This document shows, piece by piece, positions 1 to 46,658 of a DNA stretch of 64,000 nt. Each line of letters opens with the position of its first letter. Position 1 is the stretch's first letter. This DNA is from a virus, in IMG/VR virus record IMGVR_UViG_3300027801_000011, positions 1 through 64,000 of that record; one strand, 5' to 3'. A model generated the notes under the pieces. The model saw only the letters and a program-made list of their open reading frames with translations. It did not search any database and had not been told where the DNA came from. The position numbers and the translations under genes are program-made.

Positions 1-204
1 CAACACGCATACAAGTTCGCAAAGAGCAAAGGCGTGATAGTTGATCCTTCTGAGATTGACAACAAGGTTGCATCTGGGCCTAAGAAACCATCTTCTGGTA
101 AGACTAATTCTTTTATTCTAGATACTAACAAAAAACAAAAGGTACACATTCAAGTTGCTAATCTCGACAATAAGAGATATGAACTGAACATGTATATTGA
201 CTGA
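1..204 (+). CDS. 3' end of a hypothetical phage protein (partial)
   Basis: Frame 1 open from base 1 (QHAYKFAKSKG...RYELNMYID*); its TGA overlaps the next ATG (TGATG). Confidence 0.7.
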   Translation, partial: QHAYKFAKSKGVIVDPSEIDNKVASGPKKPSSGKTNSFILDTNKKQKVHIQVANLDNKRYELNMYID

Positions 205-593
205 TGATTAAGGTATACTTATTTCTGCTAATCATGGGGATCATGGGAGCAGCTGGTTACGGTGCTTATTATTACTATAAGGACACTCAGTCTAGAATTG
301 CTACTCTTACGGAGAATAGTGCTAAGTTAGAAATGGCTGCAAAGACACAGAAGAACACTATCGATACTCTCATTGCAGATGCAAAGAAGTTTCAAGAATT
401 GAACAGTGAATTGAACATAAAATTAACCGAAGCAACTAAATATAAGAACCTTCTCTTAACTAAGTTGAGAAAGATTAATCTTGCTAAGGTGAGTGCAGAG
501 AACCCTGCCTTATGGGAAAAGAAGATAAACAATGCAAGCAAACGTGTACTGGAAAGTTTCGAGTCTATTACTGCTATCCCTGCTGTTAAGTAG
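204..593 (+). CDS. putative inner-membrane spanin (Rz-like)
   Basis: N-terminal TM helix followed by coiled coil; overlapped at its 3' end by a lipoprotein gene. Confidence 0.7.
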   Translation: MIKVYLFLLIMGIMGAAGYGAYYYYKDTQSRIATLTENSAKLEMAAKTQKNTIDTLIADAKKFQELNSELNIKLTEATKYKNLLLTKLRKINLAKVSAENPALWEKKINNASKRVLESFESITAIPAVK

Positions 594-927
594 CTGTAGT
601 ACTTGGAATCCATTAAAGACAGTTGAGATTAAGACGGTTGAAGTTGACAGGCAAATTCCTGTACAGAATCGCCCTCAACCTATTAAGATAAACAGCAACA
701 TGAAGTGGTGGGTTGTTACTGAGGAAAACTTTAAGGAATTTAAAGAACAATTCCAAAAAGAGAATGGCGATCCTTTGGTTGCATATGTGCTAAGTGTTAA
801 AGATTATGAGACGCTAGCGATCAATATGGCTGAGATTAAGAGATATATTGAACAACAGAAATCGATAATTGTGTACTATGAAGACGCAGTTAAACCTGTA
901 GTGAAGGAAAAAGATATTAAGAAATGA
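532..927 (+). CDS. putative outer-membrane spanin lipoprotein (Rz1-like)
   Basis: Lipobox LLLSSC, proline-containing periplasmic part, overlaps the i-spanin in another frame. Confidence 0.7.
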   Translation: MQANVYWKVSSLLLLSLLLSSCSTWNPLKTVEIKTVEVDRQIPVQNRPQPIKINSNMKWWVVTEENFKEFKEQFQKENGDPLVAYVLSVKDYETLAINMAEIKRYIEQQKSIIVYYEDAVKPVVKEKDIKK

Positions 928-972
928 CGTTCATCCCAATGGGACGGAAGTAGCTATGCTGCGAAGGAACGC
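928..972 (+). ncRNA. glutamine-I riboswitch (glnA RNA motif)
   Basis: CGTTC-A-TCCC(AAT)GGGA-CGGAAGTA-GC(TATGCT)GC-GAAG-GAACG-C: P1 CGTTC/GAACG, P2, and E-loop AGTA/GAA match the glnA motif consensus as I recall it. Confidence 0.85.
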
Positions 973-1001
973 ACTTAACCTGTAAAGAGGGGAAGTGTGA
1001 T

Positions 1002-1109
1002 ATGCCTAAATTAATATACTACCAATACTTAAAATTGATTAGAGAACGAAGAATTAAAGAAATTAATAAGATACTACAAAGAAGGAAGAGAACATATGGG
1101 AACTTTTAA
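1002..1109 (+). CDS. small basic peptide (35 aa) downstream of the riboswitch
   Basis: MPKLIYYQYLKLIRERRIKEINKILQRRKRTYGNF*; purine-rich SD-like GAGGGGA upstream; below the ORF-track cutoff. Confidence 0.6.
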   Translation: MPKLIYYQYLKLIRERRIKEINKILQRRKRTYGNF

Positions 1110-1608
1110 TGGGAAGATCACAGCGGAGTTTACCCCACCCCAGACTTGGGTGTTGGAGAAGGGTCTTTCCTTTGCTACAGATGATCTAACAGACCAAGAA
1201 ATTGCTACACTAAAACATGTTGGAGCTAATATTGCAGAAAGCGGTAGGATTACTTGTAAGAAAGGTATGAAGACAGATTTGGCATCAACTCCAAGAATTC
1301 TGTGGAACTTCATTGCCCCTTGGGATGTTGCTCGAGCCGCTATTATACATGATCATTTGTATTCAACTCTCAGAGTATTTTATGACAACAATATCAGATT
1401 GGGTAAAGGCGACAAAGAGGAACACAAAAATAAGTGGGCTCAGGCAAGAGCAATATCTGATAAGGTATTTCGATTGGCCATGGAAAGTGCAACTCCAGAA
1501 GTTCCTGCTTGGAAGATTAAATCAGCATATCAAGCTGTACGACTATTCGGAAGGTGGCCTGCTTCTAAACAAGAAGAATCGGCATACTTGACAGGTAAGG
1601 GGAAATAG
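1096..1608 (+). CDS. DUF1353-family protein
   Basis: TDLASTPR...AAIIHDHLY...AYQAVRLFG motifs. Confidence 0.75.
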   Translation: MGTFNGKITAEFTPPQTWVLEKGLSFATDDLTDQEIATLKHVGANIAESGRITCKKGMKTDLASTPRILWNFIAPWDVARAAIIHDHLYSTLRVFYDNNIRLGKGDKEEHKNKWAQARAISDKVFRLAMESATPEVPAWKIKSAYQAVRLFGRWPASKQEESAYLTGKGK

Positions 1609-1764
1609 ATGACCCAATGTAGTAACTGTGGTCATGATTCTCACTGTGGTACTAAACTTATGAAAGACTATCGCCGTGAACCTTATAATCACGGAATGGA
1701 AGGTCAGATAGAAGTTTGCAAGAAGTGTAGATGTGAGAAATGCACTGCTCCAGATTGGGGCTAA
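1609..1764 (+). CDS. small Cys/His-rich putative zinc-binding protein (51 aa)
   Basis: MTQCSNCGHDSHCG...VCKKCRCEKC; abuts both neighbours. Confidence 0.7.
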   Translation: MTQCSNCGHDSHCGTKLMKDYRREPYNHGMEGQIEVCKKCRCEKCTAPDWG

Positions 1765-1765
1765 T

Positions 1766-2005
1766 ATGATTAATACCGAACACCCTAGAGATGTGGGGCT
1801 AACCTATTTTCAGCATCTCAAATTTGCGTGGTTTGAATCTATTTGCGCTTTTAGAATTTTCCTTTTAATGTTTATTCATGGTCTACTCCCTTGGATTTGG
1901 GATTGGAAATTTAATGAATATCTTGATGACGCAAAAAAACGAGTGGAACCTCAAGATAAAGTGAGGAAAAATTCTTGGGGTAAACCCACAATTTGGATGG
2001 AATAA
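1766..2005 (+). CDS. DUF6356-like small membrane protein
   Basis: HPRDVGLTYFQHLKFAW...HGLLPW. Confidence 0.6.
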   Translation: MINTEHPRDVGLTYFQHLKFAWFESICAFRIFLLMFIHGLLPWIWDWKFNEYLDDAKKRVEPQDKVRKNSWGKPTIWME

Positions 2006-2253
2006 TGTGGATTTTTTTAATTAGTAGTATCGCATCCAGTATACTAGGAAGTGCAGCTGATAGTTGGTTTTCAGGCACCAAAGCTGGTGTGTGGTTCTAT
2101 AAGAAAGTTGACAATGTTTCGACATGGGCTTCTGAAAAGTTGGGATTGAAGGTTTTGGCAGATGAAGAGAATTGGAAAGCACAATACCCCAATGTCAGTA
2201 AGAAAATTGACAAACTTGAGGCCAGAGTTAACAAATTAGAAAAAGGAGATTAA
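2005..2253 (+). CDS. hypothetical protein
   Basis: ORF coupled to the upstream stop (TAATG). Confidence 0.6.
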   Translation: MWIFLISSIASSILGSAADSWFSGTKAGVWFYKKVDNVSTWASEKLGLKVLADEENWKAQYPNVSKKIDKLEARVNKLEKGD

Positions 2254-2254
2254 C

Positions 2255-2422
2255 ATGATTTCAGATTGGATTGGAAATCGAATCAAAGAAGGCTCTACAC
2301 ATCAAGGCACTATCGTTGTTATTGCTGCTGTAGCTGTACTTTTCTTTGCAATACCATTAACCAAAGTAATTCTTTGGGGCGCACTCGCTTGGGGCGCTTG
2401 GTCGATTTTGAAAAGCAACTAG
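2255..2422 (+). CDS. small 2-TM protein, holin-like (55 aa)
   Basis: MISDWIGNRIKEGSTHQG followed by two hydrophobic segments; AGGAG SD. Confidence 0.55.
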   Translation: MISDWIGNRIKEGSTHQGTIVVIAAVAVLFFAIPLTKVILWGALAWGAWSILKSN

Positions 2423-2423
2423 G

Positions 2424-2858
2424 ATGGCTTCAGAGTTAGAGACAAAGGTTAACTTTTTAAAGAAAGAACTTCATGATCAAGCAAAGATACATGACCGGCT
2501 AGATATAGCAATTGAGAAATTGACTGATGTCTCTAACTCTATCCACCGCATGCTTGCTGTCCACGAAGAAAAGATTGCCCGACAGGAAGATGCAATTATA
2601 CTGGCAGAGAGAAACGTCGAAACCCGTAGGAACGATCTGGAAAAGAAAATAGACGATCTTCACTCTCGAATTACTACAAACACTAAAGAGATTATGAGTG
2701 CTGCTTCAACGCAACATAACGAACAGAACCAGGCGATTCAGAGAATTAGGGACGAATTGTCCAATAGAGTAGGTGTGCTAGAGAAGTGGCGGTATGTGCT
2801 TATAGGTTCATCTATAGTAATAGGTTTCATTCTTCATAAATTTGTAGATTTTACCTAA
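2424..2858 (+). CDS. coiled-coil protein with C-terminal TM helix
   Basis: Heptad-rich ORF ending in a hydrophobic helix; immediately upstream of primase. Confidence 0.6.
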   Translation: MASELETKVNFLKKELHDQAKIHDRLDIAIEKLTDVSNSIHRMLAVHEEKIARQEDAIILAERNVETRRNDLEKKIDDLHSRITTNTKEIMSAASTQHNEQNQAIQRIRDELSNRVGVLEKWRYVLIGSSIVIGFILHKFVDFT

Positions 2859-2901
2859 AAGTCCCTTGACAATTATGGCCGAATAGTATACTATCTGTTC
2901 T

Positions 2902-3900
2902 ATGAGTTCATACATTGACATTAAATATCTTAACATAATTTCCCCACAGCTAATGCAATTCAAGAAGAAGGGCGATGCCCTTTGGAATTTTCGTTGCCCG
3001 TACTGTGGAGATTCGAAGAAGAACAAGACTAAAGCCAGAGGATTCGTTTATCGTAAGAAGAATGATCTGTTCTTTAAGTGTCATAATTGTCAAGTTGGCA
3101 CTACTCTAAGTAAGTTGATAGAGCTCCTAGACTCTAAAACTCACAATGACTATATAATGGAACGATATAAAAAGGGTGTTAAGAAACAGACGCCAGAACC
3201 AGAGTTTAAATTCAATGCACCAGTTTTTCGCAAAAAGGGTATCTTTAAAGACCTCACTTCTATCTCAGAACTTGAGCCTGATCACCTTGCTAGAAAAATT
3301 GTTGAAGAGAGAAAATTACCACCCGAATCACTCAAGGACTTATTCCTATGTGATTCATTCTTTAAATTCACCAATAGTTTAATACCAAATAAGTTCCCTT
3401 CTTTGGATGGAGATCATCCAAGGCTATTAATACCGTTTCGAAATGAGCAAGGAGAAATATTTGCATATCAAGGAAGAGCATTTGGAGAAGAAAAACCAAA
3501 ATATATTACGATCAAGTTAGAAGATCGTACTAAGATTTTTGGACTAGACAAACTTGACAGAGATCAACCTCTGTTTATTGTTGAGGGCCCACTAGATAGC
3601 TTGTTTCTGGATAACTGTATAGCAGTTGCTGGATCAGACTTTGGAGTGTATCCGAATGAAGTTACTATAATATACGATAACGAACCAAGGAATAAGGAAA
3701 TTAATAAACAGATTGAGAAGTCTATTGATTTGGGTAATAATATAGTTATATGGCCTGACTCAATGGAACATAAAGATATTAACGATATGATTATCGCTGG
3801 TTACACTAAAGAAGAATTAATGGAAATAATAACAGTTAACACCTTTACTGGCGCTTCGGCTAAGTTAAGGTTCGCAGAATGGAGAAAGATCGATGCCTAG
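2902..3900 (+). CDS. DNA primase (T4 gp61-like)
   Basis: Zn finger CPYCGDS...CHNC; TOPRIM motifs VEGPLDSLF, YDNEPRN, KDINDM. Confidence 0.95.
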   Translation: MSSYIDIKYLNIISPQLMQFKKKGDALWNFRCPYCGDSKKNKTKARGFVYRKKNDLFFKCHNCQVGTTLSKLIELLDSKTHNDYIMERYKKGVKKQTPEPEFKFNAPVFRKKGIFKDLTSISELEPDHLARKIVEERKLPPESLKDLFLCDSFFKFTNSLIPNKFPSLDGDHPRLLIPFRNEQGEIFAYQGRAFGEEKPKYITIKLEDRTKIFGLDKLDRDQPLFIVEGPLDSLFLDNCIAVAGSDFGVYPNEVTIIYDNEPRNKEINKQIEKSIDLGNNIVIWPDSMEHKDINDMIIAGYTKEELMEIITVNTFTGASAKLRFAEWRKIDA

Positions 3901-5812
3901 CAATTACCTACCAACGTCCTACCAAGAATTTATTCACTTATCAAGATACTCAAGGTGGTTGCCAGAAGAGGAACGCCGAGAAACGTGGGATGAAACCGTA
4001 GGGAGATATTTCAATTTCTTCAAAGAACATTTGGATGAAATGCATGAGTATAAACTTTCAGATAAACTTAGGAAAGAACTAGAAGAGGCAGTTCTCTCTC
4101 AAAGAGTTATGCCCTCCATGCGTTGTCTTATGACTGCTGGTGAAGCATTGAAGCGTGAGAACATCGCTGGATACAATTGTTCATATGTTGCAGTTGATCG
4201 CCCACAGGCGTTTGATGAAATCCTGTATGTGTTGATGAATGGTACAGGTGTTGGTTTCAGTGTTGAACGCCAATACGTATCTGAGCTACCACGGGTTGCT
4301 GAAGAATTCCATCCTACCGACACTACTATCACCGTTGCCGATTCTAAGATGGGTTGGGCAAAGGCCTTTAAGGAATTGGTTGGTATGTTGTATATCGGTC
4401 AGATTCCACGTTGGGATTTGTCTAAGGTACGTCCTGCTGGCGCTCCCCTTAAAACTTTCGGTGGTCGTGCATCTGGGCCAGAACCCTTAGAGAGTCTATT
4501 CAACTTTTCTGTAACGACATTCCAGAACGCTGCTGGTCGTAGATTGTCTTCACTTGAAGCACATGATATCGTATGTAAGATTGCTGAAGTTGTTGTAGTT
4601 GGCGGTGTTCGTCGTTCTGCTCTCATTAGTCTATCTAATCTATCTGATGACCGTATGCGTGATGCAAAGGCAGGACAGTGGTGGATCAATGATGGACAGC
4701 GTGCATTAGCAAACAACTCTGCTTGTTATACTGAGAAACCCGACATGGGGATTTTCATGAGCGAATGGAAAGCTCTTTATGATTCCAAGTCTGGTGAACG
4801 TGGTATCTTCAATCGTGAGTCTGCTGTTAAGATGGCTGCAAAGAATGGTCGTAGGAATACAGAAGACTATGATTTTGGTACAAACCCTTGTTCTGAGATT
4901 ATCCTACGTAATCGTGAGTTCTGTAATTTGTCTGAGGTTGTTGTTCGTGTTACTGATACGAAGGAGACTCTTTTGGAGAAGGTGCGTCTAGCAACGATTC
5001 TTGGCACTATCCAGGCAACACTTGTGAACTTCAAGTACGTATCATCCTCATGGAAAAAGAATTGTGAAGAAGAGAGACTTTTAGGAGTCTCTCTTACTGG
5101 TATTATGGACTGCCAGTTCACTAATGGTAAGAAAGCTGGACTTGAAACTCTTCTTGATGACTTACGTGCTATGGCAGTTAAGACTAATAAGGAGTTTGCA
5201 CAAAAGATAGGAATCCCACAAAGTGTCGCTATAACGTGCGTCAAACCCTCAGGCACTGTCTCTCAGTTGGTTGATGCTGCAAGTGGTATACATGCTAGGC
5301 ATAATCCCTACTATATTCGAACTGTACGTGGCGACAAGAAAGACCCACTTACAAAGATGATGACAGACGTTGGATTCCCTGTAGAAGATGATGTTATGAA
5401 CCCCAATAATACTGTTGTGTTCTCATTTCCTCATAAGATCGACAAGGGTGCTGTATTTCGTACAGACATGACTGCTATTGAACAGTTGGAGTTATGGTTG
5501 ATATATCAGAAACATTGGTGTGAGCATAAACCTTCTGTGACCATTTCAGTGAAAGATAATGAATGGATGTCAGTTGGTGCATGGGTATATGAATATTTCG
5601 ACTACATGTCTGGCGTCAGCTTCCTGCCTCACACAGACCATACATATAAGCAAGCACCGTACCAAGACATCCAAAAAGAAGAGTATGAAGTTCTTCTTGG
5701 ACAGATGCCAAAAGATGTGGATTGGAATAAATTGTCAGAATACGAAAAAACAGATATGACCGTGGGAGCCCAAGAGTTAGCATGTGCAGCTGGGTTCTGT
5801 GAGATTCAATGA
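3893..5812 (+). CDS. nrdJ: class II adenosylcobalamin-dependent ribonucleotide reductase
   Basis: YNCSY, VVVGGVRRSALISL, TNPCSEIIL, TCVKPSGTVS, C-terminal CAAGFCE; no beta-subunit gene alongside. Confidence 0.9.
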   Translation: MPSNYLPTSYQEFIHLSRYSRWLPEEERRETWDETVGRYFNFFKEHLDEMHEYKLSDKLRKELEEAVLSQRVMPSMRCLMTAGEALKRENIAGYNCSYVAVDRPQAFDEILYVLMNGTGVGFSVERQYVSELPRVAEEFHPTDTTITVADSKMGWAKAFKELVGMLYIGQIPRWDLSKVRPAGAPLKTFGGRASGPEPLESLFNFSVTTFQNAAGRRLSSLEAHDIVCKIAEVVVVGGVRRSALISLSNLSDDRMRDAKAGQWWINDGQRALANNSACYTEKPDMGIFMSEWKALYDSKSGERGIFNRESAVKMAAKNGRRNTEDYDFGTNPCSEIILRNREFCNLSEVVVRVTDTKETLLEKVRLATILGTIQATLVNFKYVSSSWKKNCEEERLLGVSLTGIMDCQFTNGKKAGLETLLDDLRAMAVKTNKEFAQKIGIPQSVAITCVKPSGTVSQLVDAASGIHARHNPYYIRTVRGDKKDPLTKMMTDVGFPVEDDVMNPNNTVVFSFPHKIDKGAVFRTDMTAIEQLELWLIYQKHWCEHKPSVTISVKDNEWMSVGAWVYEYFDYMSGVSFLPHTDHTYKQAPYQDIQKEEYEVLLGQMPKDVDWNKLSEYEKTDMTVGAQELACAAGFCEIQ

Positions 5813-5973
5813 AATTAATAGTATGTGAAAAGTGTGAAGCGGAATGGAAGATGTTACACAATATGAGTGAACACTACTATGTGGTTACATATTGTACTTT
5901 TTGTGGTGAGGAATTAACACAGGAAGAGCTTCAAGATGAAATTGATCTTGAGATTTTTGATGAGGATGATTAG
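5809..5973 (+). CDS. small zinc-ribbon protein with acidic tail (54 aa)
   Basis: CEKC...CTFCG; ATGA overlap with nrdJ. Confidence 0.7.
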   Translation: MKLIVCEKCEAEWKMLHNMSEHYYVVTYCTFCGEELTQEELQDEIDLEIFDEDD

Positions 5974-5975
5974 AT

Positions 5976-6812
5976 TTGAAACTAGAACATGATGAGATAA
6001 TTGTTAAAGATGATTTGATAGAAGATAAGTTACACCAGGCGGTATACGATTGGGGACAAAATGTCTCTTGGTATACTATGTGGTTAGCGGCAACTTCTAT
6101 AAAGGGCATGGAACAAGCAGTTCCCATGAACGAATACATTCCATCTAAACATGGCAACTACAATAACAGACACATCCTTGGGCCTGTTAATGATCTGTCT
6201 GCCTTACATAAACTAACAAAGTTTGTAATGTATAGACACCCTGTAGGTTGGGATGATGAAAGTTGTGAACTGAGATCACCCGTTATCTGGGATTTGTGGT
6301 CTAAGATCAATAAACATTTCTTTGATGGCAATGCTACACTAGATGGAATCAAAGAACCGTGTGGTGGTCTGCGAGGGCCAAATCACTTCTATGATGGAGA
6401 AGATTTCTATAAGAAGCATGATGTGCCCTTTAACAACAACGAATGGTCTTCTATGTTAAATGCTAGAACAGTAGAAATATTCGATACTGAAATAGGTAAT
6501 CGGGTTGGACAATACCACAAAGATACAGCACCAGAACATAAAGATTCTGATAAACACTTCACAGTCCTATATGTTGCCAATAGAGAATGGTATCCAGATT
6601 GGGGTGGTGAACTAACTTACTTTGATGGTGGTGAAACTGGAGCTAAACATTGGAGAAGGGGATATGACTTAGGATGGCCTTGTAAGGTTGTTGGTCATAA
6701 ACCAAATCGAATTATGATATATCGTCATGATCAAATCCACAACACCGCTCCACCTAAACCAAACGCTCCAGAGATGACACAGAAAATTGCCTTTAGAGTT
6801 AGAATGAAGTAA
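5976..6812 (+). CDS. 2OG-Fe(II) oxygenase
   Basis: HKD...WGGEL...H...AFR pattern. Confidence 0.8.
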   Translation: MKLEHDEIIVKDDLIEDKLHQAVYDWGQNVSWYTMWLAATSIKGMEQAVPMNEYIPSKHGNYNNRHILGPVNDLSALHKLTKFVMYRHPVGWDDESCELRSPVIWDLWSKINKHFFDGNATLDGIKEPCGGLRGPNHFYDGEDFYKKHDVPFNNNEWSSMLNARTVEIFDTEIGNRVGQYHKDTAPEHKDSDKHFTVLYVANREWYPDWGGELTYFDGGETGAKHWRRGYDLGWPCKVVGHKPNRIMIYRHDQIHNTAPPKPNAPEMTQKIAFRVRMK

Positions 6813-25823: not shown

Positions 25824-26232
25824 TATTCCCAAAGACAGCATATCGTCTACACCAATAGTAGAAGCAGATGAAGAGCTGGCAGAAGAATCTCAAAAAACGC
25901 CAGAAGAACCAAAAGTGGAAGGTCAACTAAACCAACCTCAAGTTGGTGCCTTTGTGGTACACAGACCAACTCTATGCGGGGATGCTGTCTCAATAATGAC
26001 GGGAATTGATAAGAATTCTAAAGAAGAACCTGTTGCTTTTTGGACTGATGCTCAATATGGACATAAGGTTATGATGCTTCGTAATGATGAGACTAAGACT
26101 GTTAGTATGATTGAATGGCCTAGGCCTGAGATTGCTTGTTTTATATCAGTTGGTACTGATTCTATGATGAAACCAGCTGAAGATGTTGGACAGAAAGTAG
26201 TTTATAAAAGGGACTTGACATTTGCACCTTGA
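25762..26232 (+). CDS. lipoprotein
   Basis: Lipobox LMGC. Confidence 0.6.
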   Translation: MKHLIAIWAVFLLMGCQTNNNIPKDSISSTPIVEADEELAEESQKTPEEPKVEGQLNQPQVGAFVVHRPTLCGDAVSIMTGIDKNSKEEPVAFWTDAQYGHKVMMLRNDETKTVSMIEWPRPEIACFISVGTDSMMKPAEDVGQKVVYKRDLTFAP

Positions 26233-26245
26233 TATGGTATAAATA
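26215..26245 (+). promoter_or_regulatory. dual early/late promoter for tmRNA
   Basis: TTGACA-17-TATAAA; the -10 extends to the late consensus TATAAATA. Confidence 0.75.
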
Positions 26246-26249
26246 GTAT

Positions 26250-26642
26250 ACAATTTGATGATACGAATTGAAAGCTGAACTGGACGAGGGGGCAGTACCC
26301 TCCGCCTCCACCAAAAGGAGACTAGAATGCTAGAGATATTGTTAGGGGATTCTGATGAAGACCCCCTTAGTACGAGAGGTTAGTAAGTGGATGTTTAAAG
26401 CATATATCGTTTGGAGTATATGTGCTGACATTACCCTACTAGCGGGTTTAATATACCTAGTCTTTTTTTGATGGGGGCGAAATAGGATCGACAGGCAGAG
26501 ATAGATGAGTGGAGAATTGTCGGATGACTCCGTTATTGGTCAAATTAGTAAATGCAAACGATAATATTGCATATGAGGATTTCGCACTAGCTGCGTAATC
26601 TGTCGGGGTTCGGGGAGTAACCTAGCAACAGAATACTCCCCA
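26250..26642 (+). ncRNA. ssrA: circularly permuted (two-piece) tmRNA, alphaproteobacterial type
   Basis: Acceptor piece ...GGGGCAGTACCCTCCGCCTCCACCA ends 26313; coding piece starts GGGGGCGAAATAGGATCGAC at 26473 (G3:U pair); tag ANDNIAYEDFALAA* at 26554-26598; 3' CCTAGCAACAGAA element. Confidence 0.93.
26355..26471 (+). CDS. 38-aa membrane peptide inside the tmRNA intervening segment
   Basis: MKTPLVREVSKWMFKAYIVWSICADITLLAGLIYLVFF*; stop lies 1 nt before the coding piece. Confidence 0.55.
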   Translation: MKTPLVREVSKWMFKAYIVWSICADITLLAGLIYLVFF

Positions 26643-27059: not shown

Positions 27060-27203
27060 AACGTAATACCTTGTTGACCGATAGACAGGTCATTAATTAG
27101 TGTCTATCGGGTAATGCCGTAATACATTCGGGTCATGCCGTAATACATGCGAGTGGGGTCTATGGTTAACCCCACACTTTATTATTTTAATTGGAGAAGA
27201 CTA

Positions 27204-27422
27204 TTGTCATTGAACACACCGAAAACTTTCGCTATCAAGATAGAAGAAGTTGTTAAAGAAAAAAAGATATCACATATGGATGCTGTCCTGTGGTATTGTG
27301 AGGATCAAGCAATTGAACCAGATTCGGTTAAGAGTTTAATCTCCAAAGCGTTGAAGGAAAAGATCGAAGCTAATGCTAGAGATTTGAATTTCCTTCCCCG
27401 CCAGGCACAATTGCCAATATAG
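27204..27422 (+). CDS. late transcription coactivator (gp33-like)
   Basis: FAIKIEEVVKEKKISHMDAVL...LISKALKEKIEANARDLNFL. Confidence 0.85.
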   Translation: MSLNTPKTFAIKIEEVVKEKKISHMDAVLWYCEDQAIEPDSVKSLISKALKEKIEANARDLNFLPRQAQLPI

Positions 27423-46123: not shown

Positions 46124-46527
46124 TGGTTATGGTTAATAAAAAGTTCGACAATATCGATGACGGTATTGCAAATATGATCGCTGCTGCGAATTATGATTAT
46201 GATAATTTCAACGTGAGTGATGACATGAAGGCCGACTTTAAGAAGGGTTGGGAGATCAAGAAAGGTTCTAAGTACATCAAGATTAATACTAAGAACTCTG
46301 CTTGGGGATTCGTTGTCAACACTGATGACGATAAGAAGTTCATGAAGGGCGACTTGCTCATGTGTGCTGGTTATAAGGCCCCTGCTAGAAATGGTGCAAG
46401 AGGTAACGTCCTTGAAGGTGGTTTCGAAATCCGCTGGACTGGCCCTCTCTACTTGGTAGATAAAGGTCGAAAGGCCGCAAATTGGGGCAACCCTGCCGCA
46501 AAACTTAGCATTAACATTGGAGGTTAA
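46123..46527 (+). CDS. early conserved phage protein
   Basis: KYIKI...WGFV...GDLLM.AGYKAPARNGARGNV. Confidence 0.65.
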   Translation: MVMVNKKFDNIDDGIANMIAAANYDYDNFNVSDDMKADFKKGWEIKKGSKYIKINTKNSAWGFVVNTDDDKKFMKGDLLMCAGYKAPARNGARGNVLEGGFEIRWTGPLYLVDKGRKAANWGNPAAKLSINIGG

Positions 46528-46529
46528 TT

Positions 46530-46658
46530 ATGGAAAACCCTAACACATTTCGAGAGAAATTCATCACGTTCAGCAGGATTGCTGGAGACACCCTTGCTAT
46601 CTTGTCTATCTTTGGCATGGGTTACGTTTGTTTGGTAGTTTTTGGAGATAGATATTAA
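46530..46658 (+). CDS. small membrane peptide (42 aa)
   Basis: GGAGGT SD; one TM. Confidence 0.55.
   Translation: MENPNTFREKFITFSRIAGDTLAILSIFGMGYVCLVVFGDRY

Follow-up and report, generated by a model that had tools for sequence, protein, structure and literature searches.

A glutamine riboswitch and a small basic peptide gene as a probable mobile cassette in a T4-like phage

Few metabolite sensors are carried by viruses, and glutamine riboswitches belong to these few. In the T4-like phage studied here, such an element lies between a spanin gene and a DUF1353 gene and is followed by a reading frame of only 35 codons. This arrangement raises the question of which gene the riboswitch controls, in which direction, and how the two came to lie at this site. 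We analysed a window of 64,000 nt (the whole stretch of DNA under study), which is part of a 115,309-bp virus record and has the lysis region of the phage at its start. The features discussed below are as follows:

204–593 (+), i-spanin-like gene (PHROG 739, Rz-like spanin, E 9.5e-13)
532–927 (+), o-spanin-like lipoprotein gene, overlapping the i-spanin-like ORF (PHROG 812, Rz-like spanin, E 1.1e-13)
926–975 (+), type-1 glutamine riboswitch aptamer, glnA RNA motif (RF01739, full-length cmscan match)
928–1095 (+), inserted cassette comprising the aptamer, the platform and the greater part of the sORF (four syntenic relatives lack it)
970–999 (+), expression-platform helix enclosing the Shine-Dalgarno sequence (MFE folds; pairing kept across phage copies)
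987–992 (+), Shine-Dalgarno-like GAGGGG, 9 nt before the ATG (sequence and fold)
1002–1109 (+), sORF for a basic, predicted single-helix peptide, the putative regulated gene (homology, open frame, pN/pS and AlphaFold2)
1096–1608 (+), DUF1353 gene (PF07087, E 1.1e-14; phrog_1158, E 7.3e-22, PHROG label 'tail assembly chaperone')
26211–26642 (+), alpha-type two-piece tmRNA (RF01849, 137 bits; RF04321, 123 bits)

A megablast search with positions 1–6000 of the window gave no match among cultured phages. The primase is 53% identical to that of Melnitz (Methylophilales, OM43), 50% to that of Pelagibacter phage Mosig, 46% to that of HTVC008M (SAR11) and approximately 45% to that of cyanophage S-RIM8, and the OM43 phage Melnitz and the SAR11 phages Mosig and HTVC008M are the nearest cultured relatives. 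Neither psbA nor a glutamine synthetase (GS) gene was found in the virus record. Based on the primase relatives, the alpha-type tmRNA and the lack of psbA and GS genes, we place the phage in the branch of Kyanoviridae that infects marine heterotrophs.

Aptamer and expression platform

The aptamer begins at the stop codon of the o-spanin gene, where a glnA-type aptamer had been proposed in a sequence-only reading of the window. The cmscan alignment covers model positions 1–53 of 53 with 50.2 bits (E 4.8e-8), well above the RF01739 gathering score of 35 bits, and thus bears out this assignment. When the same aptamer is scored in its own virus record, the E-value is 2.1e-11, and it is the only RF01739 copy in the 115,309 bp. 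The P1 pairs extend from C928–G971 through C932–G967. The conserved junction strings are all intact in the cmscan alignment, and both the three-stem junction (P1, P2 and P3) and the C directly 3′ of P1 are present. From its position, we take this nucleotide, C972, to be the linchpin C of the aptamer. In the 48 phage copies compared, the junction columns and the C on the 3′ side of P1 are invariant, and pairing amounts to 100% in P1 and P2 and 87.5% in P3. P3 has a U-U mismatch in place of its third pair, in the window as well as in the closest relatives (L256 and L260).

In the MFE fold of positions 920–1020 (−26.8 kcal/mol, z = −2.6), nucleotides 970–976 pair with 993–999, and an inner CCU (979–981) pairs with AGG (988–990). 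The purine-rich Shine-Dalgarno sequence at 987–992 lies inside this helix, with A988–G990 paired to 979–981, and the ATG follows 3 nt after the helix, which links the 5′ leader with its platform to the start of the gene. The helix takes C970 and G971, which are P1 nucleotides, and also C972. The sequence-only reading had described a hairpin that buries the Shine-Dalgarno sequence and shares nucleotides with the 3′ end of the aptamer; the fold recovers it at 970–999, with C970, G971 and C972 as the shared nucleotides. The helix alone has a stability of −13.5 kcal/mol, about half of which is lost, leaving −7.0 kcal/mol, when the three pairs of C970, G971 and C972 are removed. The hairpin that is left after removal of these competing pairs (4+3 bp) can still cover the Shine-Dalgarno sequence.

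Pairing in the helix reaches 99.2% among 48 distinct phage copies, in which the helix begins with the same G-C at which the aptamer ends and stops 2–5 nt short of the start codon. Compensatory changes are found at two helix pairs (25 C-G, 21 U-A and 2 U-G at one; 38 C-G, 8 U-G and 2 U-A at the other). None of 500 shuffles reached the covariation score of the helix, and pairing falls to 27–53% when the partner strand is shifted by one to three columns. Cyanobacterial gifB-type leaders have the same design in other letters, with GCGCCUC pairing with GAGGCG in place of GCACUU with AAGUGU in the window, and many of the cyanobacterial leaders retrieved with the same pattern precede full-length IF17 genes.

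Glutamine-dependent activation has been shown for the Synechocystis gifB leader, and a model was proposed in which ligand binding leads to a long-range G-C pair, upon which a short helix masking the ribosome binding site melts (Klahn et al. 2018, PMC6212724). An equivalent mechanism can be formulated for the window. At low glutamine, the helix would form fully, occupying C970 and G971, which P1 needs, together with C972, and initiation on the sORF would be hindered. Upon glutamine binding, P1 and the long-range pair would claim C970, G971 and C972, the stability of the helix would drop from −13.5 to −7.0 kcal/mol, and the peptide would be translated. We interpret the element as a switch that turns translation ON, because of the gifB mechanism and because half of the helix energy resides in the competing pairs; the ON-type logic suggested earlier for this locus thus draws support from the analogy with gifB, which has the same helix design. 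Because the residual hairpin may mask the Shine-Dalgarno sequence, the magnitude of the glutamine response, and indeed its direction, are only what we infer from this comparison. What the riboswitch most likely turns on, by the same analogy, is a small, conserved, basic and helical peptide.

A simple scan of the window copy detected neither a sigma-70 promoter of its own nor an intrinsic terminator. A −10-like hexamer is enriched just upstream in many other cassettes. In a few copies inspected by eye, a terminator-like GC hairpin with a T run precedes the cassette.

The sORF and its peptide family

The sORF extends from the ATG at 1002 to the TAA at 1107–1109 and encodes an unannotated peptide of 35 aa, with 11 Lys or Arg residues against 2 Asp or Glu residues and a net charge of +9. 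Its end overlaps the start of DUF1353 by 14 nt. The closest relatives, L256 and L260, were found by a second scan that used the platform sequence of the window, and they agree with the window in its unusual P3 and in the spacer ahead of the ATG. The peptide that they encode shows 55% identity to that of the window over 31 aa (BLASTP with L260, E 9e-9). Further relatives are found in L248, L251, L271 and P0019, the last of which is nearly identical to the window peptide in its central stretch. Comparison of the window with L260 gives a pN of 0.30 and a pS of 0.75 (pN/pS 0.41), and the value for the family is 0.25, calculated from sequence pairs that are not independent. Frame 0 alone is open in the window, L260 and L248. 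On these comparisons, the sORF is evidently coding and its peptide under purifying selection. The Arg/Lys-rich frame that had been picked out beside DUF1353 from the letters of the window is therefore real, and the conservation that it should show in related genomes is found in L256 and L260.

AlphaFold2, supplied with an alignment of 26 sequences, predicts a single helix over residues 3–33 (mean pLDDT 89.8), in which the N-terminal third is hydrophobic and aromatic and the remainder is basic. The idea of an amphipathic helix was dropped because the hydrophobic moment, 0.14, is below the shuffled mean of 0.23. The peptide has no match in Pfam at E up to 1, no usable match in the ESM Atlas and, by tblastn at E up to 10, no match in cultured phages; the best E-value of a PDB profile search was 0.11, which is not meaningful. 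We know of no functional homologue. The possibility that the sORF is a frameshifted remnant of a longer DUF1353 N-terminus was rejected because the DUF1353 start that is conserved in the closer relatives (MG.FN) coincides with position 1096.

A pattern scan of IMG/VR for the conserved aptamer core yielded at least 120 loci. Among the 123 riboswitch matches listed, 121 are followed by a short ORF behind a Shine-Dalgarno sequence, and this ORF is complete in 119. The ORFs called in these listed matches have 13–78 codons, some of the shortest reflecting mis-picked starts, and they begin 7–36 nt after the aptamer except in four tandem cases. Of the 97 distinct peptides called among the matches listed, 93 are net positive, and the other four are start-codon artefacts. 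The payload peptides form several unrelated families. One is characterized by a YRG motif and shows sub-threshold matches to DUF4278 (E 3e-4 to 1e-3), and another, of 50–51 aa, is annotated in Mosig as Mosig_00116. In a large family of approximately 28–38 aa, an aromatic-Cys motif precedes a basic stretch that ends in K-I-L or N-x-I-L.

The window peptide belongs to this 'W-C ... K-I-L' family of approximately 30 aa. A family HMM built without the window gave it a modest 15.8 bits, a score reached by none of 2000 composition-preserving shuffles, and the sORF has the placement typical of the family, starting approximately 25–30 nt after an RF01739 aptamer and behind a homologous helix. The aromatic-Cys motif near residue 7–8 is absent from the window peptide, which has Y-Q there. 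Because L260, L248, L249, P0019, P0021 and P0023 lack the motif as well, we assign the window peptide to a Cys-less subfamily. A profile search against 1.84 billion representative proteins gave 20 matches, all of 29–72 aa; none is fused to another domain, and the longest is a tandem duplicate. This protein (P0013, 72 aa) has two copies of a W..YCR-type peptide in tandem in one ORF, which suggests a duplication of the payload. No source in a cluster look-up names these peptides.

In Melnitz, an unannotated homologous sORF of 32 codons lies directly behind the riboswitch and the same helix (L125, 1572–1667 (+), corresponding to approximately 46469–46564 of MZ577097.1). GenBank instead has an opposite-strand ORF of 33 aa at this site (MelnitzEXVC044M_89).

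Several variants were seen alongside this family. The viral contigs L247, L250, L262 and L273 have an aptamer variant, in which P2 is closed by CACCC with GGGCG, and the same platform in front of a different payload of 79–81 aa. In L024, L051, L072, L080, L090 and L176, the last in a Rickettsiales-labelled MAG, an ORF of 77–78 aa starts with a GTG inside the 3′ strand of the helix. RF01739-type aptamers, often in tandem, are also present in records labelled SAR86, SAR116, Gamma- or Betaproteobacteria (including L130, L135, L139, L144, L164, L168, L169, L175, L178, L179 and L184), and one carrier is a complete SAR86 chromosome. These non-cyanobacterial aptamers are followed by ORFs for small basic peptides or, in SAR86, for a protein of approximately 198 aa with a signal peptide. 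Because of their occurrence in SAR86, SAR116 and proteobacterial records, the class does not appear to be confined to cyanobacteria and their phages; some of these matches may be phage DNA binned into MAGs.

Insertion at the spanin/DUF1353 junction

The DUF1353 protein retrieved no relatives from IMG/VR. A metagenome scan with the same protein gave six relatives, one of which is near-identical and five of which have approximately 50% protein identity and the same spanin–DUF1353 synteny. The near-identical contig, L275, is 99.7% identical over 4605 nt and contains the identical cassette; it is the only one of L275–L280 with an RF01739 match. In L276, L278, L279 and L280, riboswitch and sORF are both absent, and the stop codon of the spanin gene overlaps the start codon of DUF1353 (TAATG). 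Because these four syntenic relatives join spanin and DUF1353 directly, we regard positions 928–1095 as an insertion of approximately 168 nt. It abuts the o-spanin stop precisely on one side and the DUF1353 start on the other, and the last codons of the sORF are read from the 5′ end of DUF1353. In L277, a different ORF of approximately 55 codons occupies exactly the place of the cassette at this junction (2740–3035). Among these relatives, the boundary between spanin and DUF1353 has the appearance of a hot spot for insertions.

As a side observation, the DUF1353 proteins of Melnitz (L122, 4899–5504) and HTVC008M (L124, 4173–4778) have 201 aa and an N-terminal hydrophobic segment, and those of the window and its metagenome relatives have approximately 170 aa without such a segment.

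Related cassettes are found at other genome sites. The Melnitz cassette lies between the tmRNA and a gp33-like gene. On the 3′ side of the window tmRNA, a 98-aa ORF is followed by a gp33-like late-transcription coactivator gene (27147–27422), and this junction is intact and, unlike that of Melnitz, free of a riboswitch. In Mosig, the cassette adjoins tRNA genes. That of L260 stands alone on a contig whose best match among cultured phages is pelagiphage HTVC115P, and that of L042 is on a contig with a capsid gene like those of jumbo phages. These positions indicate that the sensor moves with its peptide, as one small cassette, among marine phages that are not related to each other.

Known systems and competing explanations

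The closest characterized counterpart is the gifB leader of Synechocystis sp. PCC 6803. As in the window, an RF01739 aptamer is located directly before a small protein gene, and a short helix formed from nucleotides just 3′ of P1 pairs with the ribosome binding site. The two differ in that the window payload is non-homologous, with no DUF4278 and no IF7-like region, and in that it is carried not by a cyanobacterium but by a phage with relatives among the phages of marine heterotrophs. Glutamine riboswitches have been reported in Melnitz and Mosig (Buchholz et al. 2022, PMC9004378), which are T4-like relatives of the window phage, with 50–53% primase identity. The aptamer and platform of Melnitz are 85.5% identical to those of the window over 76 nt and are followed by the homologous sORF, whereas the cassette occupies a different genome site in each of the three phages. 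In the published analysis, the riboswitch is linked with tmRNA or the timing of lysis, and the sORF is not described (PMC9004378). In marine picocyanobacteria, the Downstream-peptide/glutamine-II riboswitches likewise place a glutamine sensor directly before a conserved ORF of 17–100 codons (PMC2864571), with DUF4278 'IF17-like' sORFs (Weinberg et al. 2010, PMC2864571; Klahn et al. 2018, PMC6212724). This class differs from the window element in its family (RF01704, not RF01739), in its peptides and in being chromosomal, not phage-borne. The survey that described short ORFs behind the Downstream-peptide motif also recorded glnA RNAs in marine metagenomes, some of them in tandem (PMC2864571), and a glutamine riboswitch is known in T4-like cyanophages (PMC9964418). 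In the literature searched, we did not find a description of the peptide family as a regulated payload in phages related to heterotroph phages, of the unannotated Melnitz sORF, or of sensor and peptide as one unit of insertion and deletion.

The sequence-only reading had gone further and proposed the peptide as a candidate GS inactivator, that is, a functional analogue of IF7/IF17 that binds host GS via basic residues and shuts it off at high glutamine. In cyanobacteria, gifB (IF17) is under the control of this riboswitch class (PMC6212724), and GS genes were found in all three tested non-cyanobacterial genomes carrying the riboswitch. Payloads for nitrogen control do occur, since some phage cassettes with the same sensor carry the YRG peptides with their sub-threshold DUF4278 matches. 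However, the window peptide has neither the YRG motif nor a DUF4278 match (Pfam, E up to 1). Homology to the IF7-like C-terminal region of IF17 was rejected: an hhalign comparison of the family including the window with this region of 14 cyanobacterial IF17 proteins gave a probability of 0.08 and a score of 6.25, which is at background level, as the column-shuffled controls average 6.9 and 125 of 200 score as high. The net charge of +9 fits binding via basic residues, but basic charge is non-specific, being common to nearly all peptide families behind the riboswitch. IF7 is a disordered protein, from which the predicted rigid helix differs. Furthermore, Melnitz carries a homologous peptide though its host lacks glnA, as stated by the authors (PMC9004378). 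These results speak against the proposed role, and we consider it improbable; a low probability is kept because functional analogues need not be homologous. The published assignment to tmRNA (ssrA) has a different basis, namely that the Melnitz aptamer overlaps the annotated 3′ end of ssrA (PMC9004378). In the window, the tmRNA is 25 kb from the riboswitch and none adjoins it, so that such control is contradicted by the coordinates, and there is no obvious way for a switch at the 3′ end of an RNA gene to act. In Melnitz itself, the aptamer is followed by the same helix and then by the unannotated homologous sORF. For the window riboswitch, control of tmRNA is extremely unlikely, and the published statement for Melnitz does not fit the data as we read them, because the switch follows the tmRNA, the homologous sORF follows the switch, and the two elements are far apart in the window.

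Two other explanations keep the sensor at its present place and assign it a different output. The sORF could be a mere leader, the relevant output being glutamine-dependent expression of DUF1353 and later genes via translational coupling. The sORF stop is 14 nt inside DUF1353, no terminator follows the sORF in the simple scan, and the relatives couple spanin and DUF1353 by the overlapping TAATG, a link that the insertion broke. Nevertheless, the peptide is under purifying selection in unrelated contexts without an overlapping gene, an SD-like GGAAGAG belongs to DUF1353 itself, and four relatives have DUF1353 without any switch, which makes this reading rather doubtful. Control of DUF1353 by the riboswitch is plausible only as an incidental result of the insertion: the sORF ends inside DUF1353 and could pass on some glutamine dependence, and DUF1353 may be partly coupled to sORF translation. 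Of the earlier suggestion that downstream genes are tied to nitrogen status, such a side effect is the most that stands, given that the four syntenic relatives are switch-free. Alternatively, the element may be an OFF switch, or an unresponsive sensor that was recently inserted as a passenger without regulatory effect. The residual −7.0 kcal/mol hairpin could mask the Shine-Dalgarno sequence in the bound state, the third pair of P3 is mismatched, and the simple scan found no promoter of its own. However, no conserved aptamer position is altered, the score exceeds the cut-off by a wide margin, L256 and L260 have retained this P3, and the helix design is that of gifB-type leaders, the Synechocystis example of which is experimentally ON (PMC6212724). 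The L275 copy, from another metagenome contig, is unchanged as well, which has little weight at 99.7% identity. An OFF or unresponsive element is thus quite unlikely.

The explanation we prefer, with a probability of roughly 0.75, is a mobile cassette in which a glutamine riboswitch switches ON a selected, basic, single-helix peptide. The region would be a sensor-effector cassette consisting of the aptamer (926–975), the helix enclosing the Shine-Dalgarno sequence (970–999) and the 35-codon peptide gene (1002–1109), and the peptide would be its selected payload. During infection, the peptide may act in the nitrogen or translation physiology of the host. A bolder and considerably less probable proposal is that the helical peptides of approximately 30 aa constitute a new class of phage effectors, which would be made only at high host glutamine, act on a nitrogen or translation target of SAR11/OM43-type heterotrophs (for example GS, as non-homologous IF7 analogues, or PII) and spread as a sensor-effector minicassette.

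The targets of phage riboswitches are mostly unstated or, in the Melnitz paper, given as tmRNA, and the regulated unit here would be a tiny conserved peptide gene. Standard annotation misses such a gene. That this riboswitch class exists and is associated with small proteins was already known, and the present locus extends this knowledge without adding a new principle. It offers a concrete and testable starting point for asking how phages that infect abundant heterotrophs of the ocean may read the nitrogen status of their hosts, for which cultured systems exist in Melnitz on OM43 and Mosig on SAR11.
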